A DNA stretch of 64,000 nt from a virus, in IMG/VR virus record IMGVR_UViG_3300045988_188298, positions 1 through 64,000 of that record; one strand, given 5' to 3'. The position numbers were made by a program, and so were the translations under genes. Every line of letters begins with the position of its first letter. Within the stretch, counting starts at the first letter, position 1. The notes under the pieces are model-generated. The model was given only the letters and a program-made list of their open reading frames with translations. It was not told where the DNA came from and made no database searches. This document shows, one piece after another, positions 1 through 47,679 of the stretch.

Positions 1-55
1 ACTCACTCACTCACTCACTCACTCACTCACTCACTCACTCACTCACTCACTCACT
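1..55. repeat. Tetranucleotide simple-sequence repeat (ACTC)n, 13.75 units, truncated by the window start
   Basis: Perfect actc periodicity from nt 1 to 55, seen directly. Reading frame is open from the repeat into the downstream methyltransferase ORF. Confidence 0.95.
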
Positions 56-72
56 ATCAACCAACGCCGAGG

Positions 73-837
73 TTGCTGCATGGTGACTGCCTAAAGTTAA
101 TGCCTAGAGAGCTGGCTGATAATTCTATAGATTTAGTAGTCTGTGATTTACCCTATGGCACAACCAATGCAAAATGGGATTCAGTCTTAGATTTAGAAGC
201 ACTTTGGGAACAGTATAAACGAGTTGTGAAACCAAATGGAGCTATCTTACTCTTTGCACAAACTCCGTTTGATAAAATCCTTGGCTGTTCAAATATAGAG
301 CAGCTAAGATATGAAATCATCTGGGAGAAAACTCATGCCACTGGCCATCTAAATGCAAAGAAGATGCCATTAAAAGCCCATGAAAACATTTTAGTCTTTT
401 ACGAAAAATTACCAACATACAACCCACAAAAAACACAAGGACACACAAGAAAAGTTTCATCTGCCAAATCAAAAGTCCAATCATTAAAAAGGCACAAAGA
501 GAACATGAAAGACGGCAAAGCCATTTATGGGACATATAATGAAACCAGTTATGATTCGACGGAACGTTATCCACGAAGTGTTCAAGTATTCTCAAAAGAT
601 GTTCAGACATCAAAGCTGCATCCAACACAAAAACCAGTGGCCTTATTAGAGTGGTTAATTAAAACTTACTCTAATCCCGGCGACACTGTTTTGGATAATA
701 CAATGGGTTCTGGCTCTACTGGTGTTGCTTGTATTAATACCGGGCGTAAATTTATTGGAATTGAACTGGATGAGAAATATTTCTATATTGCCAATAATCG
801 GATTTTAGAAACAATGAGTGATAAAAATAAAGATTAA
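73..837 (+). CDS. DNA N6-adenine/N4-cytosine methyltransferase (beta-class, PF01555-like). True start may lie upstream, inside or beyond the SSR
   Basis: Catalytic DPPY-like motif DLPYG near the N-terminus and AdoMet motif DNTMGSGSTG near the C-terminus. The ORF stays open upstream through the (ACTC)n tract. The only in-window start is a TTG at 73. Confidence 0.8.
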   Translation: MLHGDCLKLMPRELADNSIDLVVCDLPYGTTNAKWDSVLDLEALWEQYKRVVKPNGAILLFAQTPFDKILGCSNIEQLRYEIIWEKTHATGHLNAKKMPLKAHENILVFYEKLPTYNPQKTQGHTRKVSSAKSKVQSLKRHKENMKDGKAIYGTYNETSYDSTERYPRSVQVFSKDVQTSKLHPTQKPVALLEWLIKTYSNPGDTVLDNTMGSGSTGVACINTGRKFIGIELDEKYFYIANNRILETMSDKNKD

Positions 838-862
838 TAATTATCTTGTTGATTCCACTTAG

Positions 863-905
863 TTTATAATAGTCGTTGTAAATTATTTTACAACTATTAT
901 TATTT
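863..905 (+). promoter_or_regulatory. Conserved promoter module: TATAAT, then TTGTAAA, then TTTTACAA, then an AT-rich tail
   Basis: TATAAT at 865-870, TTGTAAA at 876-882, TTTTACAA at 886-893. Same architecture repeated upstream of at least 20 genes in the window. Confidence 0.55.
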
Positions 906-928
906 TTTAACATAAAGGAGTTTTTATA

Positions 929-1576: not shown

Positions 1577-1594
1577 AATCTACATATATTTTGT

Positions 1595-1711: not shown

Positions 1712-2419
1712 ATGAATATGAGGTTATTCATAAGTGAATTAATGAGTGGAAACAATCAATATAATCAACTAAATAGATTCTTTTTTCATCTAACACCGTC
1801 TGGAATATTATTTATGATTTTTTCTTTAATCTTAGTTAGTTTTCTTTTTTGGTTTTTTATTTCCATATACAAGAACACTATTGCAAAAACAAGGTTGTTC
1901 CAAAAACATTTTAAAACAGGTCATTCATCCATTCCTAATTCTGGGTTTGATAAGGTTGATTTTTATTTCATAGGATTTGTTGTTTCACTATTACCAGTCC
2001 TATGTATCATGTCTTTTCTGTTTTCTAATGTCTCTATGTTTCAAGCTTATGCAAGAGAATCAGAGGCCGTTGACAGTCTTCAAAGAAAAGATATTTTTGA
2101 AAACTATGATTCTAAAGTAGTGGTTACAGGCAACTATAGATATTCAAACTATACAGAGAATGAAGTTAAAAATGTGTTTTTAGTCTTAGAGAAAAAAGAT
2201 AAGTCATCTTTTTATTCCAACCCATACTATTTACAACCAGTTAATAAGGTTGAGCTTTCAATTGATGGTGTTGGCGATAGAGGATTTAAGCTCGTTGACA
2301 CAAATGTAGATTTTCTTCCCCCAAGAAAATTCTTTATTAAAAAAGAAGATGCCCCAGAAATTTACAAGAAAATATTAAAATATAAAAAAGAAATAGAATC
2401 AAAAACTGAGAGGAATTAA
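1712..2419 (+). CDS. Membrane protein, member 1 of a tandem paralogue triplet
   Basis: N-terminal TM helices. C-terminal region related to the next two ORFs. Confidence 0.5.
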   Translation: MNMRLFISELMSGNNQYNQLNRFFFHLTPSGILFMIFSLILVSFLFWFFISIYKNTIAKTRLFQKHFKTGHSSIPNSGFDKVDFYFIGFVVSLLPVLCIMSFLFSNVSMFQAYARESEAVDSLQRKDIFENYDSKVVVTGNYRYSNYTENEVKNVFLVLEKKDKSSFYSNPYYLQPVNKVELSIDGVGDRGFKLVDTNVDFLPPRKFFIKKEDAPEIYKKILKYKKEIESKTERN

Positions 2420-2422
2420 ACT

Positions 2423-3079
2423 ATGTTACCTATTTTACCTAATTTTACACCAATCAAAATTGACCCAATTATTGATTTATTTACCAAAATAAATAATAAT
2501 GAAACATTACTAAGCCAATCAGATAAAGGAGATTTAGGATTCTTTTATATTGAATTAGTTTTCTTAATATTGACTATCTTTATAACCACTTTGGTTTATT
2601 TTTGCAAAAGAAAAGATGACAAAAAAATAGCAAAACAAAAAGCAAAAGAAGGACTTTGTGTGATGCTACTTCTTGTATACTCTTCTCTTTTCACATATTT
2701 TACAGCAATAAATCCAACAATTAGCAAATATAATGAAATCAATAATTTACAGTTAGAAACAGTCTTCTCCAACTACAATATTGACAGAGTTGAAAGTGTA
2801 AAGAATAATGAAAAAACTGTAATTTATGATGCTTCTGGGAACAAAAAACCAGAAACTCAGTTCAAAATTTACTTAAATAAAACTATAAACAGAAATGATA
2901 TAAGCAAATCTATATATCGTTATCTAAAAAAATCTGTTGTTATCAATGTTACAAAAGTTAATAAAGACGGCTTTGATATTCTTCTCCCTAATGGAAAAGT
3001 TGTAACAATCAAAGAGAAAGATGCTGAACAAATCTTCAACACTCTAAACAAAATTAAAGCAAAAGAAAGTGAGAATTAA
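2423..3079 (+). CDS. Membrane protein, member 2 of the triplet
   Basis: Shares a C-terminal block with the 3083 ORF: YDAxGNxK...FK(I/V)YL(N/D)KT...V(T/S)KVNKD(G/S)FDI(L/I)LP..K..TIK. N-terminal TM helix. Confidence 0.5.
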   Translation: MLPILPNFTPIKIDPIIDLFTKINNNETLLSQSDKGDLGFFYIELVFLILTIFITTLVYFCKRKDDKKIAKQKAKEGLCVMLLLVYSSLFTYFTAINPTISKYNEINNLQLETVFSNYNIDRVESVKNNEKTVIYDASGNKKPETQFKIYLNKTINRNDISKSIYRYLKKSVVINVTKVNKDGFDILLPNGKVVTIKEKDAEQIFNTLNKIKAKESEN

Positions 3080-3082
3080 AAT

Positions 3083-3757
3083 ATGTTTTCAAATATTACA
3101 GAAATTAATCCTATTTTAGAATTGTTTATGTCTAAGAACCCCCCATCATCACTCTTTGTTATTCTGTTTTTTATATATTTAGTATTTTTTGTAGTAATGG
3201 CAGGTTTGTCACTTTTAATTAGTGATTTTACAAGAATAAATAAATACACTCCTTTTGTACGAAAAATAATTTCGTGGCAGAAATGGTTATACATTGTAAC
3301 ATTTATTGCCATATGTCTTGTATTTGTATTTCATTATGAAACCACCAATAAAGCTATTAGAAAAACACCATTAAAATCTGTATTTTCTAGTTATCGTATC
3401 GCTAAAATTAAACAACCAAAAGAATCTGATTCAGCTATAACTTATGATGCTTTTGGAAACCAAAAATCAGAAAGACCAAAAACTCTTTTCAAGGTCTATT
3501 TAGATAAAACAAAAGATGTTAAAAATATAGAGCTGGAACATGATGTTATATTGGAAGTTTCAAAAGTCAATAAAGACAGTTTTGACATTATTCTACCTGA
3601 TGAAAAAGTAGAGACAATTAAAAAGGATGATGCTTTGCAGAAGAGAAGACTGATTAATCTTCTCTTTCTTTTTTTATTTTATAATATTAAATGTAAATCA
3701 TTTTACAATATAAAATTAAAATTTAACAAAAGAAAGGAATCTTGTTTTAAAGGATAA
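3083..3757 (+). CDS. Membrane protein, member 3 of the triplet
   Basis: Same conserved C-terminal block as the 2423 ORF. TM helices at the N-terminus. The stop of one gene is 3-4 nt from the next start. Confidence 0.5.
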   Translation: MFSNITEINPILELFMSKNPPSSLFVILFFIYLVFFVVMAGLSLLISDFTRINKYTPFVRKIISWQKWLYIVTFIAICLVFVFHYETTNKAIRKTPLKSVFSSYRIAKIKQPKESDSAITYDAFGNQKSERPKTLFKVYLDKTKDVKNIELEHDVILEVSKVNKDSFDIILPDEKVETIKKDDALQKRRLINLLFLFLFYNIKCKSFYNIKLKFNKRKESCFKG

Positions 3758-3777: not shown

Positions 3778-4347
3778 ATGAAAAAAGATTATGTTATCCC
3801 AGTCGAATGGACTATTGTGAAGAATGTTAAAGTTTCGGCAGAATCTCTAGATGAAGCAAAAGAACTCGCAGCTTTTGCTTCTGTTGAAACAGGAACATAC
3901 TTGGATGGTTCATACAGAATCAATGAAGAGTTACTTGAAGAATTTGAGGAAAGTCGCAAACAAAAAGAAAACATTGAAAGCAATAAAGAAAAGTTGTTGG
4001 ATAAAACTTTCTCAGACGATTTTCTTTCATCTCTGCCTCTACGTTGGGTATGGGTTGGTAAAGTTGATGCTGTTTTGCCAGATGGTGAAACATGTAAAGC
4101 TGTCAAATTTAGCCGCTCTGAAGGTTGGGGAGTGAAGGCCACAACCACAGAAATGGTTTTCGTACCTCAGGATGAGCCAAATCTTCTAGATGAAGAAAAT
4201 TACTTTGATGTGTACAAAGTTGGTTTCGAGGGTAGTGATTCCCTTTATAAGACCATTGATTTTGTTTCTACATCAAAACTAGAGAGCTACCTCAAAGAAA
4301 ATCTCAACAATATGGCTGAGTTCTTTGATGCCATCTCTAAAAAGTAA
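3778..4347 (+). CDS. Hypothetical acidic protein
   Basis: Long ORF with RBS. Overlapping antisense ORFs are judged spurious. Intrinsic terminator at 4383-4418. Confidence 0.45.
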   Translation: MKKDYVIPVEWTIVKNVKVSAESLDEAKELAAFASVETGTYLDGSYRINEELLEEFEESRKQKENIESNKEKLLDKTFSDDFLSSLPLRWVWVGKVDAVLPDGETCKAVKFSRSEGWGVKATTTEMVFVPQDEPNLLDEENYFDVYKVGFEGSDSLYKTIDFVSTSKLESYLKENLNNMAEFFDAISKK

Positions 4348-5321: not shown

Positions 5322-6581
5322 ATGAAAAAAAATAACAAAAAAATCAAAATAAACCCAAATGTTGATTTATCTGATGCAACACTAGAAGAAATGACACAAG
5401 TAGAACAAGAATTGCTTGTCAAACTGGCCAAAAAGAAACTTACTTCAAAAATGGTAGAGGATGCCTACAAAAAACATCCAGATTGGCCATCACCAGCAGC
5501 AACAATTATGCCCGTAAGAAGCACGATTGGCTATACAGCTTTGTTTGGGAATTATTATTTGTTCTATCTGACAATTCCTGAATTGCTAGATGTTCTTTTG
5601 GTTGATAATGTTTTCTATGATGAAAAAGAAATGAAATGGAGAGTTAAATTTAAAGGAATTGATATTGATAGCCTAGATAAAGCTGTTGGATTGTTTTTCA
5701 AATCTATTTCCTTTAAAGAATTGTATTCCGGGAATGACCTCTATAAACTGATGTTTAAGTTTTCGTTTGTAAAATTTCCTAAGTCACCACTAGGTCTATC
5801 AAAAAAAGAATTTGACGATTTGGTTTATGATTTGGCATCAAAACCAGAAGTTTTAAAAAATAAGCTAGACATTATCCAAGTCTTAGAAAATGAATTAAAA
5901 TATCATGGCTATAATTTAGGAGCTACCCCATTTATCAAGCATAAGGATGTTCCTAAAAAACTATATAGAACTATGATGAACAATGACGCCTCAGACATCA
6001 TCAGTTATGTTCCAAAAACAAAAATCTTTGACTTATGGAAAGAAAACCCTAATAAGCAGTTAGAAGAATCAAATGGTTTTTATGACTATATTGTTAATAT
6101 CCATGAATTGCCTGATGATACTTACATTAATATTCGCATTACCTCAGAGAAACCAATGCTAACAAAATTTTATTGGCCACATCCATGCAATCAGTATAGG
6201 GGTTACACCCGTTTCTTGCCAAACAATCTTCAAAGCCTATTAAGACCTAAAAAATTAGCTGATAAGATTTTAAGAGAATTATCACCTATTGTCAAAATAG
6301 AGACCTATCCTAGCCTTAGAATTAAAACTGTTTTGGAAAGTTTAGACAAAGGATATGAAATTGAGAACTTCAAGTCATTGATTAATTTCTATGTCAAATC
6401 TTTGCAGCAAAAAGGCCTGATTGACAAATTACAAATTGAAGTAACTCTAGAAGATATGTTAGAAGAAACATTAAAAGAGGCTGATTTCGTGGAGAAGGTA
6501 AAATCAAGAAGCAAAACATGCTTGCATATTGTAGGAAAATCATCAAATGGACTGGGGGATGAAGTTTTGACCTCAGAATAA
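5322..6581 (+). CDS. Hypothetical protein (419 aa)
   Basis: Long ORF with RBS AAGGAAG. No recognisable motif. Confidence 0.5.
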   Translation: MKKNNKKIKINPNVDLSDATLEEMTQVEQELLVKLAKKKLTSKMVEDAYKKHPDWPSPAATIMPVRSTIGYTALFGNYYLFYLTIPELLDVLLVDNVFYDEKEMKWRVKFKGIDIDSLDKAVGLFFKSISFKELYSGNDLYKLMFKFSFVKFPKSPLGLSKKEFDDLVYDLASKPEVLKNKLDIIQVLENELKYHGYNLGATPFIKHKDVPKKLYRTMMNNDASDIISYVPKTKIFDLWKENPNKQLEESNGFYDYIVNIHELPDDTYINIRITSEKPMLTKFYWPHPCNQYRGYTRFLPNNLQSLLRPKKLADKILRELSPIVKIETYPSLRIKTVLESLDKGYEIENFKSLINFYVKSLQQKGLIDKLQIEVTLEDMLEETLKEADFVEKVKSRSKTCLHIVGKSSNGLGDEVLTSE

Positions 6582-7727: not shown

Positions 7728-8828
7728 ATGAAAATGAACAATAATAAATTAACAAAAATTGCCGCTAAAGGCATGACAAAATTTGACCTTGCACCCAAAA
7801 AAGAGGTGGCAATTGAGCAGCTTAAATCCATCCAAAAGGAACTTGCTAATATTGGCAAGGAATACAAATTGAACATCATTTCAAAGCTTGACAACTTTCG
7901 TGGAATTGCGAAAGCTTTACAAGCACTTCGTGTATCAGGAGTTGATGTACTGACCTTAGAAGAAATCAAAAAAATTGGTTTCTATACTAAGTTAGCTCGT
8001 CAAAATCTTTTTGAAGAAGTTCTGCTTCGTGAAAAAGTCTTTGAAAAGGCTCTGAATAGCTGGGTGGAAGCTAAGTCTGTTTTTGATTTAGGCATCAGCT
8101 TTGATGAGAATTCTAAAGAAGCAAAAGTAGACGGCAACCATGACATCTATCTAAAGATGTCTGATAAGAAGCCCGGAAAACTTGTAGACATCATTGCAGA
8201 AATTGACCAAAACATTGATTTCTGTGAGAAACTGATTTGCCAAAGCCGTTTCAAAGAAATTCAAGCTGCTTTTGTAGGAGTTGGATATGATGAATTTGCA
8301 GAGGATTTCAAGAAAGACTTGCGAATCCTTAAAGGTCAATTTGTTATCCTAAAAGAATCTCTCAATGGCTACAATATCAATCTTGAAGAGTATGTAGAAC
8401 ATACTCTAAAAGGAATGGTTGATTTTGCCAACACAGCATTTAACCATTACACAAACATCAATACTCTCAAAAAAATGGAAGAGTATGGTAAATTTGTGGA
8501 CATGGAAGAAAAGCGCATCAAAGACGAAGAGAAAGCAGCAATTGATTTCTTCTGGGGAACATTCAGTAAGAAATTTGTCTGGAATGTTATTCCAAAAGAT
8601 TTTGCTTTTGCAGTTTTCCGTAAAACAATCGGCGGTCTGACACAGACTCGCTTCCATGAATTAAGTCAAGAATGGATGAATGATAATCCAAGCTGGACTT
8701 ACAAATTCGGCAATCTAAAAATTGTTGTTGGGTCTAAAATGGATGAGGTTGAACCTCTCGAAAAAGAACTCAACATCAAAGTGAAACGTCAAAAAACCGT
8801 TCGTGGTTATTTGCGTCTTGCCAAATAA
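7728..8828 (+). CDS. Hypothetical protein (366 aa)
   Basis: Long ORF with a strong RBS. Terminator hairpin at 8851-8881. Confidence 0.5.
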   Translation: MKMNNNKLTKIAAKGMTKFDLAPKKEVAIEQLKSIQKELANIGKEYKLNIISKLDNFRGIAKALQALRVSGVDVLTLEEIKKIGFYTKLARQNLFEEVLLREKVFEKALNSWVEAKSVFDLGISFDENSKEAKVDGNHDIYLKMSDKKPGKLVDIIAEIDQNIDFCEKLICQSRFKEIQAAFVGVGYDEFAEDFKKDLRILKGQFVILKESLNGYNINLEEYVEHTLKGMVDFANTAFNHYTNINTLKKMEEYGKFVDMEEKRIKDEEKAAIDFFWGTFSKKFVWNVIPKDFAFAVFRKTIGGLTQTRFHELSQEWMNDNPSWTYKFGNLKIVVGSKMDEVEPLEKELNIKVKRQKTVRGYLRLAK

Positions 8829-8954: not shown

Positions 8955-9476
8955 ATGAATAAAGCAAAATCTTTTTTATTCAAATTGATTGATGATAGAA
9001 AATGGAAGGTAACTCAATCATTTGAATTTGATTATCACAATGAAATTTGGAACAGGTTGGCCCTTGAATACTTGGTCAACCCTAAAAGCCATGAACCTAA
9101 AATCTTACAACTAAAACAAATTCAAGCAGACCTTTTTAATTCAGATAAACATGATTACTGGCAGCGCAAACTACAGAATAAGTCTTTAGAAGACTTTGAA
9201 ATCGCTGTATTGTTGAGTACCTTTGAAAACTGGTATTTAAAACCAGAAAGTATTACATGGTTTGCATCTATGTTCAAGAAGTTTGAAGAAAAATATAGTC
9301 AAAATAATTATGTAGGCAGCAAAAACAATTTTTTCTCTGAAGTCAATTCAGCATTGTCTAACAAAGAACATAAAATGCCTGTTGTGTTCGTTCAATCTTT
9401 AGCGTCTGACAAATTACTAGACCAAAAGATTACAGAATTAGATAAAAAATATCAAGATATTAAAGGAGTATTTTAA
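8955..9476 (+). CDS. Hypothetical protein, first gene of a three-gene translationally coupled set
   Basis: ORF. Its stop overlaps the start of the next gene (ATGATG at 9476). Confidence 0.45.
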   Translation: MNKAKSFLFKLIDDRKWKVTQSFEFDYHNEIWNRLALEYLVNPKSHEPKILQLKQIQADLFNSDKHDYWQRKLQNKSLEDFEIAVLLSTFENWYLKPESITWFASMFKKFEEKYSQNNYVGSKNNFFSEVNSALSNKEHKMPVVFVQSLASDKLLDQKITELDKKYQDIKGVF

Positions 9477-13252: not shown

Positions 13253-14407
13253 ATGACAAAAACAAAACATAAATCCTATAAGTTTCGTCTCTATCCAAAT
13301 CAGAAACAAATGCTAATGTTTGAAAAGACCTTTGGCTGTTCGCGTTTTATTTGGAATCAGATGCTGGCTGATAAAATAGCTTATTATAAGGAAACAGGAC
13401 AAACTTTGAAGAATACACCTGCCCAATATAAGAAAGAATTCCCTTGGCTGAAAGAGGTAGATAGCCTAGCTCTGGCAAATGTCCAATTGAATCTTCAAAA
13501 GGCTTATCAATCATTCTTTAAAAATAAAAACCATTTTGGTTTTCCTAATTTTAAATCGAAAAATAAAATGACTCATCAATCTTATCGAACCAACAACAAA
13601 CAAGGAGTAGGAACAATTAGATTAAGTGATAACAATAATCAAATCAAACTCCCAAAGATTGGTTGGATAAAAGTAAAGGCTCATAGGAAACTAAAAGGTG
13701 TAATAAAAAGCGCTACGATTTCAAAGACCTCAACCGGTAAATATTTTGTTTCGATTTTGTGTGAAATTAAGATTGAGGTTGAAGAGAATATTAAAACTTT
13801 CCCAAAAACGAATTCCAACATTGGGATTGATTTAGGGTTAGAGCATTTTGCTATTCTCTCCACTGGAGAAAAGATTGAAAATCCTAGATTCTTAATCTCG
13901 GCCTCTAAAAAATTAAGGAGAGAACAGAAAATATTATCTCGTAGAGGGCTGTTGGCAAAGCAGAGGGGCAAAAGTTTAAATGACTGCATGAATTATCAGA
14001 AGCAGCGCCTAAAGGTTGCTAGACTTCATGAAAAGATTTCTAACCAAAGAAGAGATTTTCTTTCCAAGTTGAGTATCAATCTTATCAAGAACCACGATAA
14101 GATTTGTATGGAAGATTTAGCGAGTAAAAATCTCATGAGAAATCACCATATTGCCAGAGCGATTGGGGATGCTTCTTGGTCTGAATTCTGTAGAATGTTA
14201 GAGTATAAGGCTGAATGGTATGGGAAACAGATTATTAAAATTAATAGATGGTTTCCATCATCTCAACTATGTTCAAACTGTAAAACGAACTCAGGGAAGA
14301 AGCCACTTCATATTAGAGAGTGGACATGCGATAGTTGTGGCACTCGTCATGATAGAGACCTCAATGCCAGTGTGAATATTCTACATGAAGGCTTGCGTTT
14401 GGCATAA
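13253..14407 (+). CDS. tnpB: TnpB (IS200/IS605-family OrfB, RuvC-like RNA-guided nuclease type). No tnpA partner, so IS1341-like
   Basis: N-terminal YKFRLYPNxxQ motif. C-terminal zinc finger CSNCx...CDSCG. RuvC-III DRDLNASVNI. Upstream gene is not a Y1 transposase. Confidence 0.9.
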   Translation: MTKTKHKSYKFRLYPNQKQMLMFEKTFGCSRFIWNQMLADKIAYYKETGQTLKNTPAQYKKEFPWLKEVDSLALANVQLNLQKAYQSFFKNKNHFGFPNFKSKNKMTHQSYRTNNKQGVGTIRLSDNNNQIKLPKIGWIKVKAHRKLKGVIKSATISKTSTGKYFVSILCEIKIEVEENIKTFPKTNSNIGIDLGLEHFAILSTGEKIENPRFLISASKKLRREQKILSRRGLLAKQRGKSLNDCMNYQKQRLKVARLHEKISNQRRDFLSKLSINLIKNHDKICMEDLASKNLMRNHHIARAIGDASWSEFCRMLEYKAEWYGKQIIKINRWFPSSQLCSNCKTNSGKKPLHIREWTCDSCGTRHDRDLNASVNILHEGLRLA

Positions 14408-14604: not shown

Positions 14605-15936
14605 ATGAAAAATATGGTCAAACTATCAATGGTTACATTTGCTGCTATTAGTGGACTTCTTTATTCTAGCAATGTTTTAGCTAGTGAAGTCACTAAGGAA
14701 GGTACTGAGGTTTCTGTCAAACAACCAGAAATTGATGTTACTCGTCAAGATGATACATTTTACACAAAGATTGATGTAAAAGTGTCAACAGCAATTCCAG
14801 ATGATATTACCATCAATCAAGGAGACACAATGACCATGCCCTTGCCAAAAGAGCTTGAATTGGAAACAACTTATGATTTCCCAGTAAATGCTCCTGACGG
14901 TGAACCGGTAGGTCAAGCTACAGCGAACGCTACGACAAATACTGTCACTACAGTGTTCAATGATTATTTTCAAAAGAAGCCTTTGAATAAATCAATTTCA
15001 TGGACTATGCGTACACAAATTAACCGTGAAGTTGTAAAAGACGAAGGCACAATGCACCTTGATTTTAAGGGCACTGTTGTTGATGTTAAGACTGGCTCAA
15101 AAGGCGACACCAATCTCAATGAAGAATTGTATAAATGGGGGCGGCAGGATAAGGATGATGCTTCTGTAGTCCACTGGGTTGCTCGCGTAAATTATCGCAA
15201 GGCTAGTCTTAAAGGTGTCCATGTTCATGATACTTGGGATGAATCACAAGAGTATGTTCCGGGGTCAATGATTGTAAATTACCTACATTCAGCAAACCCT
15301 TGGACTCTTGCATATACTGCTGACCCAAGCTTCGTGAAAATCCGTAAAGACGGTTTTGATGCGGAAGTTGGTGATTTGGATAAAGTTGTAACTTTTGAAT
15401 ACAGCACGCGCTCCAAAGACCGCTCTATCATTCCTACTAACACCTTTACGGTACAAGCGCAAGATTACTTCTTGCAGCACGAAGTGAATTACAAATGGGC
15501 GGATGGCTCAGGTGAAGCTGATGGCAAAAATAAGCCAAAAGATAAGGTAAAACCAAAAGAATTTGAACCTAAAAAGGAAGAAAAGAAAAAGACTGAAAAT
15601 GTCAAGGTGACACCTAAACCTGAAGAAAAGCCGAAGCCTAAAGAAGATACACCAAAACCACCAGCACCAGAGGTTGAAAAACCAAAGGCTGAACCAAAAG
15701 AAGAGCCTAAGAAACCAGAACCAAAACCTAAAGAAACTCCTAAGCCAAAGGAAGAAAAACCAACACCAAAACCAGAAGTGAAAGAAGTTCCTAAGCCAAC
15801 TGAGCCTAAGAAAGTTCTTCCTAAAACTGGTTCAGATGACCGTGTTGTAAAAATTCTTGCAGGTCTGGGATTTGGAATTCTGATTGGCGTAATTGCTCTT
15901 ATGACTGGTGGTACTAAATCTACAAAGAAAGGTTAA
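14605..15936 (+). CDS. LPxTG cell-wall-anchored surface protein with a Pro/Lys/Glu-rich (PKPE) spacer
   Basis: Signal peptide. C-terminal LPKTG, hydrophobic segment and basic tail. PEPK repeats. Confidence 0.85.
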   Translation: MKNMVKLSMVTFAAISGLLYSSNVLASEVTKEGTEVSVKQPEIDVTRQDDTFYTKIDVKVSTAIPDDITINQGDTMTMPLPKELELETTYDFPVNAPDGEPVGQATANATTNTVTTVFNDYFQKKPLNKSISWTMRTQINREVVKDEGTMHLDFKGTVVDVKTGSKGDTNLNEELYKWGRQDKDDASVVHWVARVNYRKASLKGVHVHDTWDESQEYVPGSMIVNYLHSANPWTLAYTADPSFVKIRKDGFDAEVGDLDKVVTFEYSTRSKDRSIIPTNTFTVQAQDYFLQHEVNYKWADGSGEADGKNKPKDKVKPKEFEPKKEEKKKTENVKVTPKPEEKPKPKEDTPKPPAPEVEKPKAEPKEEPKKPEPKPKETPKPKEEKPTPKPEVKEVPKPTEPKKVLPKTGSDDRVVKILAGLGFGILIGVIALMTGGTKSTKKG

Positions 15937-17033: not shown

Positions 17034-17167
17034 CTTTTCATTCTTATTTATTAAATGTCTGAATTTATTTTCAGGCATTTTTTGTTTTTGAAAATCCAAA
17101 TGACTTATAATATATTTTGTAAAAATATTTTACAATATTATTTTAATTTTAAGAAGGAGGTGCTGTT

Positions 17168-30570: not shown

Positions 30571-30578
30571 CTTGCATA

Positions 30579-30652
30579 TAGTCTCTACAGGACTCGAACC
30601 TGTAACCTGTCGCTTAGAAGACGATTGCTCTTTCCAGTTGAGCTAAGAGACC
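30579..30652 (-). tRNA. tRNA-Arg (anticodon UCU)
   Basis: Reverse complement folds as a cloverleaf: D-arm GCTC/GAGC, anticodon loop CTTCTAA, T-arm ACAGG-TTCGAGT-CCTGT, acceptor with a G1-U72 wobble. Similar to known tRNA-Arg(UCU) sequences. Confidence 0.8.
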
Positions 30653-30665
30653 AAAAATAAAACAA

Positions 30666-37448: not shown

Positions 37449-39836
37449 ATGAAATACAATAACATCAATTCAACCCTTAATCCCTTTGATGATGAATTAA
37501 ACAAAAAGCACGCGCAATACGAGGAGTTTCGTGACAACCTATCAAATGAATCAATTTTCAGTAAAAAGCCGCAGGGATATGTTACACTGAAAAATGATTT
37601 TCCTGTTATCGACCAAGAAGACTGGGCAGTCCGAACCAACTATTATGAACAACTAAAAGAGGTTATTCCTCAACAAGACCTCAAAGCCCTATCTCATGGA
37701 ATTCATGTATGTGAAACAGGATTTAAAACAGAAGAATGGTCTGGTGATTTTAGCTTTGAGGCCGTAAAAACAGGCAAAATCAAGCAAATCAAAGTAACCA
37801 AGCCAACAGACTGGTATAAACACTTGATGGATAATCTAAGTATAAAATACCCTTACTATTTAAGTGAAAATAATCTTTATGTGATTTCTGTTAATGGCTT
37901 CAAAATACCAGTTCTGAAAGATTGGGTAAAGCTATATCAATCTGAGCTAGAAAACAATTCTAACACAGGAACAACAAGCTTTGCTATTGAAGAAAGTAAA
38001 AATAATGCTCTGGCAATATCTAATGACATTAAGACTCAAATGAATCAATTAACTCTTGCTGATTCTTTTGATGTTCCTGAACTGGCAGATATGAAAGAAG
38101 AATTTGAGGTTAAAAAAGCTGAACTTGAATCAATGCTGAAAGAGATGTATCAAAAGCAAGCTGCTATCCGGGAGCAACTGCAACAAGAAATTGAACTCAA
38201 TCAGCAAAAGCTCTTTGTTAAATCAGCAGACCTTTACGCCCTAGAGTACCGTTTAGGTTCTCCAGTAGAATTTAAGCAATTACTGCAAGGAACTCAGGCA
38301 GAACTAGAAACGCCTGTATCTATTCATCAAAAAGTGTATTTCTTGGATGAAGACCTTCCTCGTATTTCTCTGCTTACAAATATTCCAGAAGTGAAAAGTG
38401 TTGAAGAGTTGCTTTCTTCATCACCAGCAGCTCTTAATTATCTAGTGCCATCCAAAAAAGGGATTTCTTTTGTTAAGATGTCTCGCAACAACAAGGATTA
38501 CTCTTTAAACAAAGACCATAAACTAACTTATTCACAAAAATTCCACGCTAATCAAGTTGGAATTATTGTCCGAAACAATGAAAATGTCTGGTTTGCTTGG
38601 TGTGATGCTAATAAAGTCAAATTGACCGAAAACAGCTTTGCATCACGCTCAGTTAGTGAAGAACTGGACAAAGACTTACTTGCATCACGTTACTTCATTT
38701 TTAACTTAATTCTTGGACTTTTAGAACGTGGAGACCTTTTGAGCGTACCTACTCCACCTAAAGATATTGCAGGTCTAGAATTCAACCAATACGTGGTATT
38801 TTCTAACGCTGATGCACAAATTGAGAGTCATCCATATCTTCCATTTGCTGATATTGTAAAACAAGTTAATGACTTCGTTCAAAAGAATGATACGGTTTAT
38901 ATTCCTCAAACTTTAACAGATGGAGAGGTTGATGGCCGTAAATTCAAGGCCAGCCGAGGCAAGAGTAAGGACAGAGTAACAACCTATGGAGCAACGGTCA
39001 GCAAAGGCTTCAATGTTATGAAAGACATTGAATACAAACCTGACTTTACTGAGATTCGTTATGTAAGTGCAAACGGTTATTCAGAAAAAACGCCTAATTT
39101 CAGAATTGATGAAGATGAATTTATTTTAACTTGGGTATTCAATTCAACCGTTATTGATTATTATTTAGCTTCAAAACAAATCGGCGATTATGCTGTTCAA
39201 GGTGTTCGTGTTGACTTTGCCTATATGGCTTCTGTGTTAGCAGAAATCAGCCAAAAACTCAAAGAACAAGAGGAAAAAGAACGTCTGTTAGTTTCTTCTA
39301 AATTGTATGACTTAGGCCTTATTTCTTCTTTCAAACTTCTTAATGGAGTTAAGGTTCTTACTAAACGGTCAGCCAAAACTTATGAAAAATGGGTTTCTGG
39401 TCTATCTGATAAAGAATTAGAAGAATACAAGGATTACAAAGTCATCAACAAGGCACAAGAACTGTTGGCAGCACAACAGAAGACACGTTATTTTGTTGGC
39501 TTTGAAACAGATGGAAAGATTTTCTATCTTAATAAAAAACTTGGCGGTTCTTATTCTTACGGATATTACAAACATTACCAAATTAGTCAGTTTGAGACTT
39601 ATGCAAAAGATGAAAATATCTTTGTTGTGTTGACTGATTTGCCAGTCCAAGTTTATACTTCAAAAACAATTGCTGAGAAGCTTCGTAAAGAAATGTTGAA
39701 TGTAGAAAAAACATTCTCATTTAATGGTGAAACTTATGAGAAGCCAGAGTGGCGCGTGTTTGAGTTCTCCAAAGAAGAAGTTTCAAAATACCACAAACAT
39801 ATCAGCTTAGAAGAAATGAAAAATGGAAAGGATTAG
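37449..39836 (+). CDS. Large hypothetical protein (795 aa) with a central coiled coil
   Basis: Long ORF. Extended -10 TGATACAAT promoter at 37405-37413. RBS AGGAGAA. Confidence 0.55.
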   Translation: MKYNNINSTLNPFDDELNKKHAQYEEFRDNLSNESIFSKKPQGYVTLKNDFPVIDQEDWAVRTNYYEQLKEVIPQQDLKALSHGIHVCETGFKTEEWSGDFSFEAVKTGKIKQIKVTKPTDWYKHLMDNLSIKYPYYLSENNLYVISVNGFKIPVLKDWVKLYQSELENNSNTGTTSFAIEESKNNALAISNDIKTQMNQLTLADSFDVPELADMKEEFEVKKAELESMLKEMYQKQAAIREQLQQEIELNQQKLFVKSADLYALEYRLGSPVEFKQLLQGTQAELETPVSIHQKVYFLDEDLPRISLLTNIPEVKSVEELLSSSPAALNYLVPSKKGISFVKMSRNNKDYSLNKDHKLTYSQKFHANQVGIIVRNNENVWFAWCDANKVKLTENSFASRSVSEELDKDLLASRYFIFNLILGLLERGDLLSVPTPPKDIAGLEFNQYVVFSNADAQIESHPYLPFADIVKQVNDFVQKNDTVYIPQTLTDGEVDGRKFKASRGKSKDRVTTYGATVSKGFNVMKDIEYKPDFTEIRYVSANGYSEKTPNFRIDEDEFILTWVFNSTVIDYYLASKQIGDYAVQGVRVDFAYMASVLAEISQKLKEQEEKERLLVSSKLYDLGLISSFKLLNGVKVLTKRSAKTYEKWVSGLSDKELEEYKDYKVINKAQELLAAQQKTRYFVGFETDGKIFYLNKKLGGSYSYGYYKHYQISQFETYAKDENIFVVLTDLPVQVYTSKTIAEKLRKEMLNVEKTFSFNGETYEKPEWRVFEFSKEEVSKYHKHISLEEMKNGKD

Positions 39837-39905
39837 ACAAAAAACAGCTCTGTCTTATTTTCAGTAACGAATAGGCAAAACTGACAATTTTGTTTAGGAA
39901 GAATA

Positions 39906-40289
39906 ATGAAATTATATTTAGTATCTGAAAAAATAGAATTTACTAGTTCAAGTGCCGTAGTAGTTTTACCTAAAACATCTTTTAGTAATTTAGGGATTTT
40001 TACGAGCCTAGATAGAGCCTATCAAGAAGCTTCTGGATATTATAAAGTAAGTAGTCTTTCAGATGAAGTAGAATCTACTGAACTAGAAAATTATCAATCA
40101 AAAATTTATACAAAATCAGAAGTTTTGGGAAAATTGAAAATTCAAAAAGTAGCAGAAGAGCTTTCACCTTTATTATTAGTTTGTGAAGAGATTCAAAAAA
40201 ATCATTCTCCTGCTGATTATAAAATCTGGACAGCACAAACAAAGTCTATCTATATACAAGTTTTCAACCCAAACTCTATTTTATATTAA
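39906..40289 (+). CDS. Hypothetical small protein
   Basis: ORF with RBS GGAAGAATA. Confidence 0.4.
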   Translation: MKLYLVSEKIEFTSSSAVVVLPKTSFSNLGIFTSLDRAYQEASGYYKVSSLSDEVESTELENYQSKIYTKSEVLGKLKIQKVAEELSPLLLVCEEIQKNHSPADYKIWTAQTKSIYIQVFNPNSILY

Positions 40290-40349
40290 TGAATAGGAGA
40301 AAAATATGCAAGAAATAAAAATGAAAACAGGAGAAAAATAGTTTAAAAT

Positions 40350-41322
40350 ATGAATCGTTACAAAACAATTGATTTATTTGCTGGAATTGGTGGTCTTCGT
40401 TTGGGCTTTGACCAAACCAATCGGACGGAGACTGTATTTTCTAGCGAGATAGATAAATTTGCAAGACAAACATATCAAGCAAATTTTGGAACTGAACCGG
40501 GGGGGGGATATTACTAAGATAGAAGCATCTGATATTCCTGACCACGATATTCTCTTGGCAGGTTTTCCTTGTCAAGCTTTCTCACATGCCGGACTAAAGA
40601 AAGGTTTTGAAGATATTCGAGGAACTTTATTCTTTGATGTCGCTAGGATTTTGAAAGAAAAGAGGCCCAAAGCGTTTTTGTTAGAAAATGTAAAAGGCCT
40701 TATAGCGCATGACAATGGCAATACATTCAAAGTTATTTTAGAGACATTGAATGAGTTGGGTTATGATGTTCATTATAAAATCCTCAACACAAAAGATTTC
40801 AACATCCCTCAGAATAGGGAACGTATCTATATTGTTGGATTTTTAAAAGAAGTAGTTCTAAATTCTTCTATCTTTGATTTCCCTATTGAAGAACTAAAGA
40901 AACCGGGATATTTACAAGTTTTTAAAAAAGCTGTTCTGGGAGATGTTTTAGAAAAACATGCTTCAGATAACTACACTATATCTGACAAAGCATGGAAAGG
41001 TCTCAAAAACAGAAAGAAGCGGAATCAGGAATCTGGTAAAGGTTTTGGTTATTCCTTGGTCAATCCTAAATCTGAATACACAAGAACTTTGGTTGCTCAT
41101 TATTGCAAGGATGGGAATGAAATTCTTTTAGAACAAGATGGGAAGAATCCTAGAAAACTAACTGAACGAGAATGTGCTAGACTACAAGGGTTTCCAGAAG
41201 ATTTTGTTTTTCCTTGCAGCAAAACACAGACCTACAAACAATTAGGTAATTCTGTTACAGTTCCAGTTATTTATAAAATTGCTCGCAAGATTATTATGAA
41301 ACTAGATAAAGACACAAAATAA
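40350..41322 (+). pseudogene. DNA cytosine-5 methyltransferase interrupted by a +1 frameshift at a G9 homopolymer (40499-40507)
   Basis: Motif I DLFAGIGG in frame 0. Then GDITKI, PCQAFS and ENV motifs in frame +1 (ORF 40459-41322). Eight Gs would restore a single ORF reading EPGGDITKI. Confidence 0.85.
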
Positions 41323-41358: not shown

Positions 41359-42690
41359 TTATTTCTTGCGGCGTTTGAACAATGTTCCACTACCTAGTCC
41401 AAGGGCAGCCAAGCCTCCTGCAAACTGCATACCGATAGCTTCAGCACCAGTCTTAGGAAGTGTTTTGTTTCCTACTGTTGGTTTTGGAGTTTCCTTTTTA
41501 CCAACTTCTTGCTTTTGAGGAGTTTCTGATGGGGTTGCTGGTGTTTTTGATTTATCACCATCATCTTCTTTCTTCTCAGGAGCTTTTTCTGGAGTTTCTG
41601 TTACTTTTGGAGTTTCTTCTTTTTTCTCCAGATTTGGCTTTTCTGTAGTTGGTGTTTCTACTGGTTTCTCTACTGGCTTTTTAGGAAGCTCATTTGGTTC
41701 TGGCTTATCAGTCAGATGTTCGTTAGGGGTAGGAAAAACTGATTCTCGGATAGTTTCAACCGGTTTTTCAGCAGGCTTTTCAACTTCCTTAGCTTTCACA
41801 TTGTCCTTTTGAGACTTGACAGTTGTAGCATCTTTATCTAGCTTTTCTAGTAGAGTTCCACCAACCTTACGAAGAACAACAACTTCAACCTTACCTTTTT
41901 GAACGATAGATTTAGAAATTGTGATATTTCCAGTTGCTTCATCAAATTTGAATCCATCTTTAACAAATTCAGCTTCTTTTCTGAAATGGTCAAAAATGTA
42001 ATCAAGCTTACCAGTTTTTGGGTTGCGGAAAAGTTTAACATTGGTTACATTGCTAGTCTTGTCAGCAGTGGCAGGCTTATTGTTGAAGAATAAAACTGTC
42101 AAAGCTTTTACATTGTCATCTGTTTTGACATAAAAGTTTTGTTCGTCTGATGTCAAATAAAGATTTTTTTGTTCTGCATCAGTCTTTTTAGCTTCATCCT
42201 TTTGAGGCGCTGCTGATGGAGCTTTCAATGGAGCTGTAGAAATGCTTGTTTGTACCTTTTTAGGGGCAGCAGGTGCAGGAGTAGAAGTCTGAGCATTTGT
42301 ATCTGTTGCAGGCTTTGCAGATGGTGCTTTTAGTGGAGCTGTAGAAACAGATGTTTGCACAGTTGCTTGTGGTTTATCACCAAAGATTTCTTTTCGAACA
42401 GCAGCCGTATCTTCGGATTCTTTTGTTGGTTGGGCCTTAACATCCTTGCCTACAATGTCCATATAGTTGTCAGTGCTTTTAGCTTCTACTTTATCTGTAG
42501 TTGTGGTTACTTTATCTGGCGTTGCTGTTTTATCTGTGGTAGGGTTTGCAGCATCTGATGTGGTTGTAGTGGCTGAATTTTCCTGTTTTACAATAGGAGT
42601 ATTTTCAGCAGCAAAAACATTTTGCGCAGAACCTAGCCCAACAATACCAGCAAGTGCTAGAGAACTAGCCAATCGAAATTTCTTATTCAT
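41359..42690 (-). CDS. LPxTG cell-wall-anchored surface protein
   Basis: Signal peptide. C-terminal LPKTG, hydrophobic segment and KRRKK tail. Terminator at 41330-41358. Confidence 0.8.
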   Translation of the reverse strand: MNKKFRLASSLALAGIVGLGSAQNVFAAENTPIVKQENSATTTTSDAANPTTDKTATPDKVTTTTDKVEAKSTDNYMDIVGKDVKAQPTKESEDTAAVRKEIFGDKPQATVQTSVSTAPLKAPSAKPATDTNAQTSTPAPAAPKKVQTSISTAPLKAPSAAPQKDEAKKTDAEQKNLYLTSDEQNFYVKTDDNVKALTVLFFNNKPATADKTSNVTNVKLFRNPKTGKLDYIFDHFRKEAEFVKDGFKFDEATGNITISKSIVQKGKVEVVVLRKVGGTLLEKLDKDATTVKSQKDNVKAKEVEKPAEKPVETIRESVFPTPNEHLTDKPEPNELPKKPVEKPVETPTTEKPNLEKKEETPKVTETPEKAPEKKEDDGDKSKTPATPSETPQKQEVGKKETPKPTVGNKTLPKTGAEAIGMQFAGGLAALGLGSGTLFKRRKK

Positions 42691-44859: not shown

Positions 44860-44871
44860 ATTAATTACTAA

Positions 44872-46290
44872 TTATCCTTTCTTTCTATTATTTTCTTCTT
44901 CAATAATTTTTTCTTCTTCCTCTAAAGCTTTGGCATAAGAGAAAGTCATTAAAAACTCTTGCTTCAAACGCTCAATGAACTGTTTGACATCTTCTTCGTC
45001 ATGTTCTTGTCTGTATCGTCCAATTTTAGCCCCAAAACTACGAAGAAATGCACGGTTTTGAATGTCATCAAGTACAGTGAATGGAAGATTCCAGATGTGT
45101 CTTAAAGCTACAGTAATGAACATATTTTTACCGATTTTGACAAAGATATGACTTCTCCTAGAATTAATCAATACTTGATTTTCTTGAACTTCTGGGAAAT
45201 ACAATTTTAAATATTCAATATTCTTATACTTCAACATATGTCTCAGCATATAAGTTGAAAGACCAACTGGTTTTTCTTGACTTACATCAAAACCATTCAT
45301 TGCCTGATATTGCAATGGCCTAGATGGGATTAAGACTTTATCTTTTTTGCAGCCATAAAGAATGTTTTCTTTAAAATCCATAACAGCGTACAAACCATCA
45401 TTTTTTGTACCTGTTTTTTCATGAGCATTTAAGAACCTATCAATGCTTGACAAATCAAGCAAAACCATTTTTTCAGTTTCAGAATCACCAGCTCCAAAGA
45501 ATAAAGATGATAAATTAGCTTGTTTTACAAACAATTCAGGTAAATCAAGCAGCTTAAAGTTTCTTTGAACTGTTAAGTTCTTATAGAAAACAGTAATATC
45601 AATCGTATTTTTGTTAAAGGCCATCTGAACACGCGCCTCTTTAGAAGCTTTTAGTTCAGACAAGAAGTGAACAAACTCAGACCGTTCAATATATTTATTA
45701 GAGTACGGATGCTTCAAGTATTTCCAACGAATTGTTTGTCCATTAGAAAAAGAAAAGACCTTGTTATCATGAAATACAAAATTACTCAAAAATTGAGCAC
45801 GTTGATTAAATTCTTTTAGTCCATCAGTTGCATCCATAAACTTATAATCAATAAGGAAGTCACTCAATGCCTCAGATGTTTCTTCTTTTAACTCAGGAAT
45901 AACTTTCAAAGCCCCTTTATCTGATTGAAAGAACCCATAATCATCGCTTAGACAGATTTCTCCCTTATCTGTTTCTAAATAAAGAGAATCAGCAGAAACT
46001 AAGAATCTAAACTCTCCAACTAAAGGTAAAGAAAAGAATTTAGAAGACATATCTTCTACAAGTTGAGCAATGTTTGTGATTGGTGCTTCCCAAGTATCTT
46101 CAATACTGTTTAAGTCAGCTCCTAGTGGATAAACAATTTGTTCTTGGTTTTTATGACTAATAACAACCACTTCTGGGCCGAAGCTAATTTTTACTCCGCC
46201 AGATGAGTTTTTAAACTCTGATTTTGTCACACCTAAAAACTTGAATAAACTTTTAAAAATAGATGAAAATTCTTTAAAATTCATTACCAA
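44872..46290 (-). CDS. Hypothetical protein (472 aa). Candidate restriction endonuclease by operon position only
   Basis: Start overlaps the stop of the upstream short HTH gene. Sits downstream of a C5 methyltransferase and a controller-like regulator. Confidence 0.4.
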   Translation of the reverse strand: MVMNFKEFSSIFKSLFKFLGVTKSEFKNSSGGVKISFGPEVVVISHKNQEQIVYPLGADLNSIEDTWEAPITNIAQLVEDMSSKFFSLPLVGEFRFLVSADSLYLETDKGEICLSDDYGFFQSDKGALKVIPELKEETSEALSDFLIDYKFMDATDGLKEFNQRAQFLSNFVFHDNKVFSFSNGQTIRWKYLKHPYSNKYIERSEFVHFLSELKASKEARVQMAFNKNTIDITVFYKNLTVQRNFKLLDLPELFVKQANLSSLFFGAGDSETEKMVLLDLSSIDRFLNAHEKTGTKNDGLYAVMDFKENILYGCKKDKVLIPSRPLQYQAMNGFDVSQEKPVGLSTYMLRHMLKYKNIEYLKLYFPEVQENQVLINSRRSHIFVKIGKNMFITVALRHIWNLPFTVLDDIQNRAFLRSFGAKIGRYRQEHDEEDVKQFIERLKQEFLMTFSYAKALEEEEKIIEEENNRKKG

Positions 46291-46505
46291 TCTCCTTTTT
46301 CTGGATTATTAGCTTCATTTATATAGTCTTGAACCTTTTCAAGAGTTTCTTCCCTAAGATTTTTAAATTGCTTTCGGCCTAAACGAATCTGTGAAATCGT
46401 TGATGCTCCAATTCCGGTATCTTTTGCCAATCGTCTAACTGGTATATTTTCATTAAATAGTGTTTCTTTAACTTTTTCTGTATCAATAATCATATAGCAC
46501 CTCAC
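46284..46505 (-). CDS. Short XRE-family HTH regulator (paralogue 2 of 3), controller-protein-like
   Basis: HTH region RRLAKDTGIGASTISQIRLG. Located between the methyltransferase and the 472-aa ORF. Confidence 0.55.
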   Translation of the reverse strand: MRCYMIIDTEKVKETLFNENIPVRRLAKDTGIGASTISQIRLGRKQFKNLREETLEKVQDYINEANNPEKGDW

Positions 46506-46596
46506 TGTTTTTATAGGTTAGTTCTATTATACCACTACCTGTATACTTTAGTCAACAATAAAAGAGATGTATGCTTTTTTACATCTCTTCTTGTAA

Positions 46597-47548
46597 TTAT
46601 TGTAGGCTGTCTTTAATAGCTTCAGCTAGTCTTTTTATAACTGGCACAGAAACACTGTTGCCTGCCTGTTTATATAATCTGGAATTGCTTTGATTAGGGA
46701 ATTTATAGTCTTCTGGAAAGCCTTGGGCATTGAAACATTCTCGTGGGGTTAGTTTCCTAATCCGTCCATCTTCAGTTAAAATCAAAGGAACATTGCTGCC
46801 ACCCGTGCCCATGTTGGCTGTCAAAGTTGGAATTAATCCGTTTTTATTTTCTCTGACGTACTTTCGTCTCCATTGATAAATCCTGTCATTTCTTGTTATT
46901 CCTTCCTCTAACTTATCATAAAATTTATTTTTCTTCTTAGAATAATAATACTTTTCATCAACAGGGTTCTTGAAATCAATAACATCATCTAGTTTTGTAG
47001 TTAGTGGAATTTCATCAGGCATTGTAAAGTTATTGAAGTCTTCAATGTCTCTAAAGGCTACAATATAGATTCGTTCTCGTCCTTGTGGAATATTACCATA
47101 TTTGGCTGAATTCATCACTTTATAAGATATATAATAACCAAGGTCTTCTAGTGTTCTAGTAATCACGGAGAAAGTTCTTCCTTCATCATGTGACACTAGG
47201 TTTTTTACATTTTCAAAAAACGCAACTCTAGGCTTTCTTTCAGATATAACTCTAGCAACATCAAAGAATAAAGTTCCTCTAGCGTCACTAAATCCTAATT
47301 GTTTGCCTGCTAGGGAAAATGCTTGGCAAGGGAAACCAGCAAGCAAGACATCAAGGTCCGGCAATTCTGATGCTTCTATAGTTGTAATATCTCTCACATC
47401 TACTTTTATGCCAAAATTTTCTTCAAACGTTTGAGCTGGATATACATCAATTTCATTGGCATAGACAGTTGTAAAACCTGCTTGTGCGAAGCCTAAGTCC
47501 ACCCCCCACTCCTGAAAATAGAGAGGCCATTTTCAATTCTTTTTTCAT
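46597..47548 (-). pseudogene. DNA cytosine-5 methyltransferase with a frameshift at a G6 tract (C6 on the plus strand, 47502-47507) separating motif I from the rest
   Basis: An upstream ATG at 47548 gives MKKELKMASLFSGVGG (motif I), then the frame is lost. The main ORF from GTG at 47502 carries PCQAFS and ENV motifs. A -1 or +2 change in the tract restores one ORF. Confidence 0.8.
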
Positions 47549-47679
47549 AATAAAAATTTACCTACTTTTATTTATTTTTTATAGCATATTACATTTTATC
47601 ATTTTTTGAAGCATAAAACAAAAAAGAGATGTAAACAATTTATTTTACATCTCTTTTCTATTGAATATTAATTAATTAA

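Follow-up and report, generated by a model that had tools for sequence, protein, structure and literature searches.

The DNA analysed here, positions 1 to 64,000 of IMG/VR record IMGVR_UViG_3300045988_188298 (hereafter the window, 64 kb), encodes three DNA methyltransferases (MTases), one of the N6/N4 type and two of the C5 type (Dcm1 and Dcm2), each with one simple-sequence repeat (SSR) inside its first 53 codons. The three genes are most probably SSR contingency loci carried by an element of ~233 kb that resembles the Inocles of oral streptococci. Translated in silico, each gene read as full length or as truncated depending on its tract length, and public assemblies contained alleles of both kinds. 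The mechanism is already known from mod and hsd genes and from Type IIG genes that vary in phase. What sets the present case apart is its context, in which three Type II-like MTases without a recognised partner, including two C5 enzymes with poly-G tracts, share one low-GC giant extrachromosomal element from oral commensals that are Gram-positive.

Repeat tracts of the three methyltransferase genes

Pfam searches with the 82 open reading frames (ORFs) of the window returned exactly three DNA methyltransferases, and the initial annotation was correct in placing a repeat in the N-terminal coding region of each (Table 1). The repeat census and TRF showed that the only microsatellite of more than four units was (ACTC)13.75 in the N6/N4 gene, which is cut by the window start, and that the only G/C run of at least 7 nt was the G9 tract of Dcm1. 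Two C6 runs were found, one being the G6 tract of Dcm2 on the minus strand and the other lying in a membrane-protein gene. The latter was the only such run among the 79 non-MTase ORFs, and it corrects the earlier statement that all other G/C runs were 5 nt or shorter. It was considered as a fourth contingency locus and dropped, being in frame and identical across six related contigs.

Markov-1 simulations gave an expectation of 2.4 G/C runs of at least 6 nt per 64 kb against 3 observed, and a lone G6 is therefore unremarkable. Runs of at least 8 nt were expected 0.07 times per 64 kb, and runs of at least 9 nt occurred in 0 of 300 simulations. The 5' ends of the three MTase genes together span ~510 nt, or 0.8% of the window, yet three of the four SSRs lay there, for which a hand-calculated binomial gave P ~2e-6. 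For G6 taken alone, the claim of a co-occurrence beyond chance did not hold. As a separate observation, an A8 run at 5325-5332 (+) formed codons 2-4 of a 419-aa ORF (5322-6581, MKKNNKK...); the reading frame is kept across it, and contig L001, which is almost the same sequence, showed no indel there.

GGG was the rarest Gly codon of the window (12.6%) and CCG made up 7% of the Pro codons. The probability of CCG GGG GGG given Pro-Gly-Gly was ~0.001, and GGGGGG encoded one of the 25 Gly-Gly pairs in the window. Because the tracts are built from rare codons, while relatives encode the homologous positions without a tract, they look selected for.

Table 1. Repeat tracts, methyltransferase genes and other mapped features (window coordinates unless a contig is named).
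Feature	Position	Strand	Remarks
(ACTC)13 + ACT tract	1..55	+	Codon 5 onward of the N6/N4 MTase; in frame reads (Thr-His-Ser-Leu)n
N6/N4 MTase body	56..837	+	Beta-class; motif IV DLPY, motif I GSGSTG
Dcm1, HhaI-like C5 MTase	40350-41322	+	Pfam PF00145 DNA_methylase, E 1.5e-89; M.HhaI match 8e-72
Dcm1 N-terminal fragment	40350..40517	+	55 aa; motif I FAGIGG; TAA at 40515-40517; OFF state
G9 tract	40499..40507	+	Dcm1 codons 50-53 (CCG GGG GGG G), just before the conserved GDI motif
Dcm1 remainder	40508..41322	+	+1 frame; listed as ORF 40459-41322
Dcm2, HhaI/HaeIII-like C5 MTase	46597..47548	-	Pfam PF00145, E 1.4e-80; M.HhaI match 5e-65
G6 tract (C6 on plus)	47502..47507	-	Dcm2 codons 14-16, within motif I (FSGVGG)
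(AGAGC) x ~10 repeat	L349 ~4025-4085 (ERZ2117166 NODE_129, 68 kb)		Right after the MTase start
Control C6	3139..3144	+	Membrane-protein paralogue ORF 3083-3757; in frame
LPXTG surface protein 1	14605-15936	+	Collagen_bind/Big_8
LPXTG surface protein 2	41359-42690	-	Pro/Lys/Glu-rich
LPXTG surface protein 3	47898-52097	-	1399 aa, GbpC-domain
TnpB-family gene 1	13253-14407
TnpB-family gene 2	23298-24671
TnpB-family gene 3	within 54084-56200	+

The N6/N4 MTase matched N6_N4_Mtase PF01555 in Pfam (73-837(+), E 5.5e-34) and MTase_II in PADLOC (8e-86), and the nearest solved structures were DpnA, CcrM and MboIIA. Its start codon falls outside the window, 12 nt before position 1, and was visible in contigs L001 and L002. 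The 5' context in complete relatives was AAGGAG-N7-ATG TCT GAT AAT (ACTC)n ACT ATC. In-silico translation showed that the gene is in frame (ON) only at n = 1 mod 3, with a full-length product of 266-282 aa; a single PF01555 domain was seen in proteins of 254-274 aa. In either OFF frame the leader met a stop, at 84-86 or 88-90, and an internal ATG followed 9-13 nt further on, at 100. Outside the tract, contig L001 (n=7) had 100% identity with the window over 11.5 kb and contig L002 (n=12) over 3.5 kb; the gene calls were 274 aa for L001 (ON) and 245 aa for L002 (OFF). Overall, n = 4, 6, 7, 8, 9, 12 and at least 14 were found on an identical 245-aa backbone. Exact look-ups with the protein of the window retrieved n=4 on 2 contigs, n=7 on 5 contigs and the OFF 245-aa product on 17 contigs from five cohorts, the OFF contigs carrying n=6, 9 or 12. 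More distant relatives had 2-10 ACTC units, and the 90% cluster of the protein held 243 sequence variants with N-termini from MSDNTHYQ... to MSDN(THSL)2THYQ.... The window and contigs L003 and L004 start inside the repeat (at least 13-14 units), and L302 and L303 had scaffold gaps within it. Since the window begins inside the repeat, the state of its own N6/N4 gene is unreadable.

A 71%-identical N6/N4 MTase on unrelated contigs of ~68 kb carried an (AGAGC)n repeat at the equivalent 5' position, read as RAEQS repeats. Members of this cluster (P0002) showed one to three RAEQS blocks or truncated products, so that copy number varies there too. The (AGAGC)n repeat is an independent SSR acquisition in one gene family, on a different and smaller class of element.

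Around the N6/N4 MTase, contig L001 showed a 69-aa HTH_3/HTH_31 protein of the size of a restriction-modification (R-M) controller (8537-8746), 340 nt upstream of the MTase, and a GC-rich hairpin followed by a T-rich stretch at 9005-9045 (AGAGGGCACT...AGTGCTCTCTTTAAATTT), just before the ribosome-binding site of the MTase. The gene that follows the MTase (929-1576) encodes a 215-aa P-loop protein with sub-threshold AAA matches only.

The Dcm1 gene of the window read ATG...GAA CCG GGG GGG GGA TAT TAC TAA, with the frameshift exactly at the tract. Removal of one G (G8) gave an intact 323-aa Dcm1 with its GDI motif, and G5 and G11 were also in frame. The 55-aa product was called in contigs L006-L009. 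On the exact backbone of the window, full-length Dcm1 was found with G8 on 11-18 contigs and with G5 on one contig, and fragments were found with G9 on 8 contigs and with G7 on 9-10 contigs. The DNA of these contigs bore out the tract lengths. A flanking haplotype of 520 nt without a single nucleotide polymorphism was shared by 25 loci (three repeat retrievals of one contig included) and carried G5 (1), G7 (6), G8 (9) and G9 (9). For L334, L335, L336 and L338 (G7), the 2-nt change in the Dcm1 tract was the only difference from the window. L012 and L013 had an intact Dcm1 with G8, and L014-L017 had CCT TTT GGA GAT in place of the tract, with L017 truncated to 262 aa. The step from CCT TTT GGA to CCG GGG GGG requires five substitutions, all of them to G.

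A small upstream ORF of 11 codons (40306..40341 (+), MQEIKMKTGEK*) with its own GGAG ended 8 nt before the Dcm1 ATG. Because this ATG has no well-spaced Shine-Dalgarno sequence, the upstream ORF may be translationally coupled to Dcm1. In addition, two contigs from independent assemblies (L010 and L011) both ended at 40389, 110 nt upstream of G9, and in one of the two samples the adjoining contig L356 started at 40369 with an overlap of 21 nt only. Tract heterogeneity within the sample was not adopted as the cause of these ends, as the break lies 110 nt off the tract and low coverage is as likely; a mixture of strains may also have caused them.

The Dcm2 gene of the window read ...TCA GGA GTG GGG GGT GGA CTT..., with the frameshift again exactly at the tract, which leaves an N-terminal product of 31 aa and a second ORF of 301 aa that starts from a GTG at 47502. 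G8 restored a Dcm2 of 317 aa with the canonical motif I FSGVGGVDLGF, the allele of the window being 2 nt short. The tract was G8, G7, G9 and G8 in four IMG/VR relatives. A sister haplotype on ten contigs, all of them OFF by ascertainment, showed G6 (1), G7 (5), G9 (3) and G10 (1), and the ten contigs with an ON allele (317 aa) were all G8.

Proposed switching between states and the alternatives to it

Dcm1 (G9) and Dcm2 (G6) were both OFF in the window. The states of N6/N4, Dcm1 and Dcm2 were, in this order, ON/ON/ON in two IMG/VR contigs and ON/ON/OFF in another two, one of each pair having a tract-less Dcm1, and ON/OFF/OFF in ERZ27262897 k119_90689. These mixed combinations are consistent with independent switching. 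Together with the tract polymorphism on identical backbones, they support the original proposal of independently phase-variable MTases. The term multi-phasevarion used there would further imply a regulon controlled by methylation.

In the proposed mechanism, slipped-strand mispairing at replication would add or drop repeat units and thereby bring the MTase domain into or out of frame with the start. The N6/N4 MTase would be ON at ACTC n = 1 mod 3, and either C5 MTase at G8, with G5 and G11 also in frame. Independent variation of the three tracts would give up to eight methylation states. The interleaving of ON and OFF lengths on one haplotype points to recurrent change in both directions, and switching is presumably frequent and reversible within the lineage.

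Several observations weigh against this account. Dcm2 was G6 in all ten loci listed with the haplotype of the window (~8 distinct contigs), and no in-frame Dcm2 with the backbone of the window was present in a collection of 15 billion proteins. Since G6 is invariant in this lineage, lies 2 nt from the ON length and is a run length within chance expectation, Dcm2 may be locked OFF or inactivated there. The 245-aa OFF product of the N6/N4 gene, which begins at the internal ATG, keeps the entire Pfam domain, and OFF may mean reduced activity and not absent activity. The polymorphism was seen between samples only, as no examined sample gave two contigs with differing tract lengths. Tract-length frequencies are biased by ascertainment, many contigs having been retrieved through an ON or an OFF product, and several near-identical contigs share cohort PRJEB6997 or re-assemble the same samples. 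The orphan status of the MTases is provisional, as most of the neighbouring genes had no annotation and a novel nuclease is possible. The initial annotation had set invariant repeat lengths in relatives against phase variation, and neither this check nor the one for generic homopolymer error refuted the proposal: the ACTC and Dcm1 tracts varied on identical sequence and the Dcm2 tract varied in the sister haplotype, while in the lineage of the window Dcm2 remained fixed at G6.

The alternative with the best support is neutral change or decay, in which the tracts are mutable and dispensable MTases are lost by frameshift in some lineages without any selected reversible switch. It would account for the uniform G6 of Dcm2, for which the collection held no ON form of that backbone, for the cut of Dcm1 to 262 aa in L017 and for G6 runs being expected by chance. 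The coding sequences outside the tracts argue otherwise. Once the tracts were repaired to G8, full-length ORFs resulted for Dcm2 from seven sources and for Dcm1 from five, the Dcm1 of a sixth source, L017, being truncated. The dN/dS ratios were 0.07-0.09 for Dcm1 and 0.04-0.08 for Dcm2 against six other alleles, which gives 0.04-0.09 overall at dS 0.4-0.8, with pairs in which both alleles were OFF included. The coding sequences are thus under purifying selection. Decay is also hard to reconcile with ON and OFF lengths interleaved on a single haplotype, with tracts made of the rarest codons, with a different SSR gained at the equivalent site of a homologous MTase and with tracts in all three MTases compared with one C6 among the other 79 ORFs. 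Decay is accordingly regarded as unlikely.

A second alternative is that OFF alleles are still expressed, through RNA-polymerase slippage, ribosomal frameshifting or re-initiation at the ATG at 100, and that the tracts tune the level of expression. Transcriptional slippage is promoted by long homopolymers. Both OFF leaders of the N6/N4 gene end 9-13 nt before an in-frame ATG whose 245-aa product retains the Pfam domain, and nine of ten OFF N6/N4 contigs had n = 0 mod 3. However, the ATG at 100 has no Shine-Dalgarno sequence in front of it, a product re-initiated there would lack the conserved N-terminal HGDC segment, and the full-length products called from many samples were of G8 only, as expected if the frame matters. 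Tuning in place of switching is therefore considered quite improbable, and tuning as such is compatible with switching at the DNA level.

Mis-called lengths in genes that are in fact intact and invariant can be set aside almost entirely: poly-G of 8-10 is harder for short-read chemistry and contigs do break near the tracts (in ACTC, and at 40389 in L010 and L011), but Dcm1 lengths recurred across assemblies and cohorts (G9 on at least 8 contigs, G8 on 11-18, G7 on 9-10), ACTC varied from 4 to 12 units in 4-nt steps unlike a homopolymer error, the control C6 was invariant, and the check for generic homopolymer error that had been proposed with the initial annotation showed no indel over ~32 kb against the independent assemblies L001, L006 and L008, the ACTC tract excepted, even though the window has six A/T runs of 8 nt and 44 of 7 nt. 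Tracts of this kind break short-read assemblies, and the resulting 'pseudogene' calls are not to be trusted at face value.

Possible role of the proposed switches and comparison with known systems

Pfam and PADLOC identified no nuclease adjoining any of the three MTases (929-1576, 37449-40289 and 44872-46505), most of the neighbours being unannotatable. Because no restriction enzyme was recognised next to them, the MTases look like orphan, self-protective enzymes. Restriction can be methylation-sensitive or methylation-dependent, as known from DpnI/DpnII-type and Type IV systems. With an MTase ON, methylation would guard the element where the host has a classical R-M system. In that state methylation-dependent nucleases (Type IV or DpnI-like) could also attack both element and host, and side effects on regulation could arise. 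Some viable state would always be present in a mixed population. We infer that methylation tracks the ON/OFF state and that the benefit is bet-hedging of element and host methylation against the two kinds of restriction among oral streptococci.

A wider proposal is made tentatively and is somewhat doubtful as a whole: the element might act as a mobile combinatorial epigenetic switch that hedges between restriction types, methylation of the host chromosome might impose a horizontally transferable phasevarion on the host, and the wider PF01555 family, with its AGAGC-bearing cluster, might represent a general strategy of oral mobile elements. If the switches work in this way, they would be the first mechanistically interpretable and testable trait of Inocle-type elements, and contingency loci would be usable by a mobile element itself and not by its host alone. 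Host range, evasion of restriction and epigenetic heterogeneity in oral streptococci would all be touched by such a system.

Phase variation of MTases through SSRs is well known in host-adapted pathogens, where it affects Type I and Type III systems encoded on the chromosome. In the Type III mod phasevarions (ModA of Haemophilus and Neisseria with AGCC/AGTC, ModS of Streptococcus suis with GAGCA), as in the N6/N4 gene of the window, an N6-adenine-type MTase carries a tetra- or pentanucleotide SSR in the 5' part of its coding sequence, the frame sets ON or OFF and the copy number varies between close genomes. The GAGCA-type unit of ModS is also matched by the (AGAGC)n repeat of the homologous cluster P0002. 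Unlike a mod gene, the gene of the window encodes a beta-class PF01555 protein of 266-282 aa with a single domain, has a Type II MTase as its best PADLOC match, shows no Mod architecture and no adjoining res gene, and lies on a giant extrachromosomal element instead of a chromosome; its identity as a Type III mod was ruled out on its domain content and neighbourhood. A regulon, which defines the mod phasevarions, is hypothetical for the gene of the window.

In Campylobacter jejuni and Helicobacter pylori, several homopolymer MTase loci per genome give combinatorial methylomes. For these Type II/IIG MTases of C. jejuni (cj0031) and H. pylori (PMC4889913, in part), a poly-G/C tract within the coding sequence switches the product ON or OFF with changes of +/-1, as in the two C5 genes here. 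The cj0031-type genes are chromosomal and belong to Gram-negative, SSR-rich pathogens, whereas the poly-G tracts reported here lie in two HhaI-like C5 MTases of an element with 33% GC. Orphan MTases, such as Dam of P1 and T4, the multispecific C5 MTases of Bacillus phages and PamA of a Staphylococcus aureus prophage (PMC13076061), are likewise stand-alone, mobile and without a recognised nuclease. By analogy with such phage and plasmid enzymes, the MTases of the element plausibly methylate both the element and its host. Unlike the genes of the window, the orphan phage and plasmid MTases are not described as phase-variable through SSRs. In a 2026 review phase variation is associated chiefly with loci of Types I and III, and PamA, the phage MTase in its table, is not called phase-variable (PMC13076061). 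A literature search found no equivalent of SSR-switched stand-alone Type II-like MTases, three on one giant Gram-positive element.

The parent element and its other genes

The G+C content of the window was 33.0%. Exact protein matches to the window came from human oral metagenomes, and DNA 99.9-100% identical to it was found in several oral assemblies, including one contig of 232.7 kb. Relatives of 223-244 kb in IMG/VR, where they are filed as viral, showed ~88-92% nucleotide identity to the window. The N6/N4 MTase family was found on many contigs of 200-297 kb, and the PF01555 family around it comprised 7403 proteins at E<=1e-60, many of them on contigs of 200-300 kb. A megablast of window positions 30001-55000 against PLSDB gave no match, and one of positions 1-25000 against GenBank phages matched at a transposase only, with 75% identity to S. 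thermophilus phages. Dcm2-based searches of metagenome and genome contigs gave none above 66% identity among the matches listed.

No capsid, portal, terminase or tail gene was recognised in the window, which covers about a quarter of the element, by Pfam on the ORFs and PHROGs on the ten largest proteins. A DNA ligase was the sole PHROG match of these ten, and eight of them had no match in PHROGs or Pfam. On these grounds the phage-like character given in the initial annotation was not adopted, and its alternative, a mega-mobile element, fits the Inocle-like profile. Inocles (2025) are giant extrachromosomal elements of oral Streptococcus, plasmid-like, of ~32% GC and several hundred kb, with a smallest size group averaging 245 kb; they carry LPXTG proteins, are rich in insertion sequences (IS), have ~95% genes of unknown function and are absent from phage and plasmid databases (PMC12340149). 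The words 'methyltransferase', 'methylation' and 'restriction' never occur in the main text of that paper (PMC12340149). The likeness consists of the oral source, 33% GC, relatives of 223-297 kb, three LPXTG proteins, three TnpB-family genes and mostly unannotated ORFs. No VirB4/VirD4, sortase or transglycosylase genes, which are Inocle traits, were found in the 64-kb window. Overall, the element looks extrachromosomal, ~233 kb long and Inocle-like by shared traits, and its host is probably Streptococcus.

Other recognisable genes of the window encoded an ATP-dependent DNA ligase, dUTPase, YopX, GIY-YIG, NADAR, SocA/Panacea and flotillin proteins. The flotillin/Band-7 protein, two SocA/Panacea (antitoxin-like) proteins and the NADAR protein were located at 24925-26406 (-), 26591-27046 (-), 31167-31982 (-) and 63458-63958 (-); such accessory functions are uncommon in phages and would suit an element of the plasmid kind. 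Two sets of tandem paralogues were present. The three genes of the first (1712-3757 (+)) encode membrane proteins of 218-235 aa, and the invariant C6 lies in the last of them. The second (16593-18737 (+)) comprised three proteins of 146-249 aa with a common N-terminal VKI(V/I)G motif. Neither set had a function assigned.

The LPXTG proteins varied in length among near-identical contigs (443 vs 408 aa, and 1399 vs 1381-1500 aa). The gene for the GbpC-domain protein contained a 51-nt tandem repeat at 48187-48372, and many contigs broke in the 3' end of the second LPXTG gene, at position 41387. A transfer-messenger RNA (Rfam 114 bits; tag ANNFATDMAA*) adjoining tRNA-Arg(TCT) lay at 30578-31055 (-), in the window's largest non-coding gap. 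Finally, the third TnpB-family gene (OrfB_IS605/Cas12f-like TNB) formed an IS607-like unit at 54084-56200 (+) together with a MerR-HTH serine recombinase, and an IS605-orfB-II RNA (133.6 bits) was found after this gene at 56044-56200.

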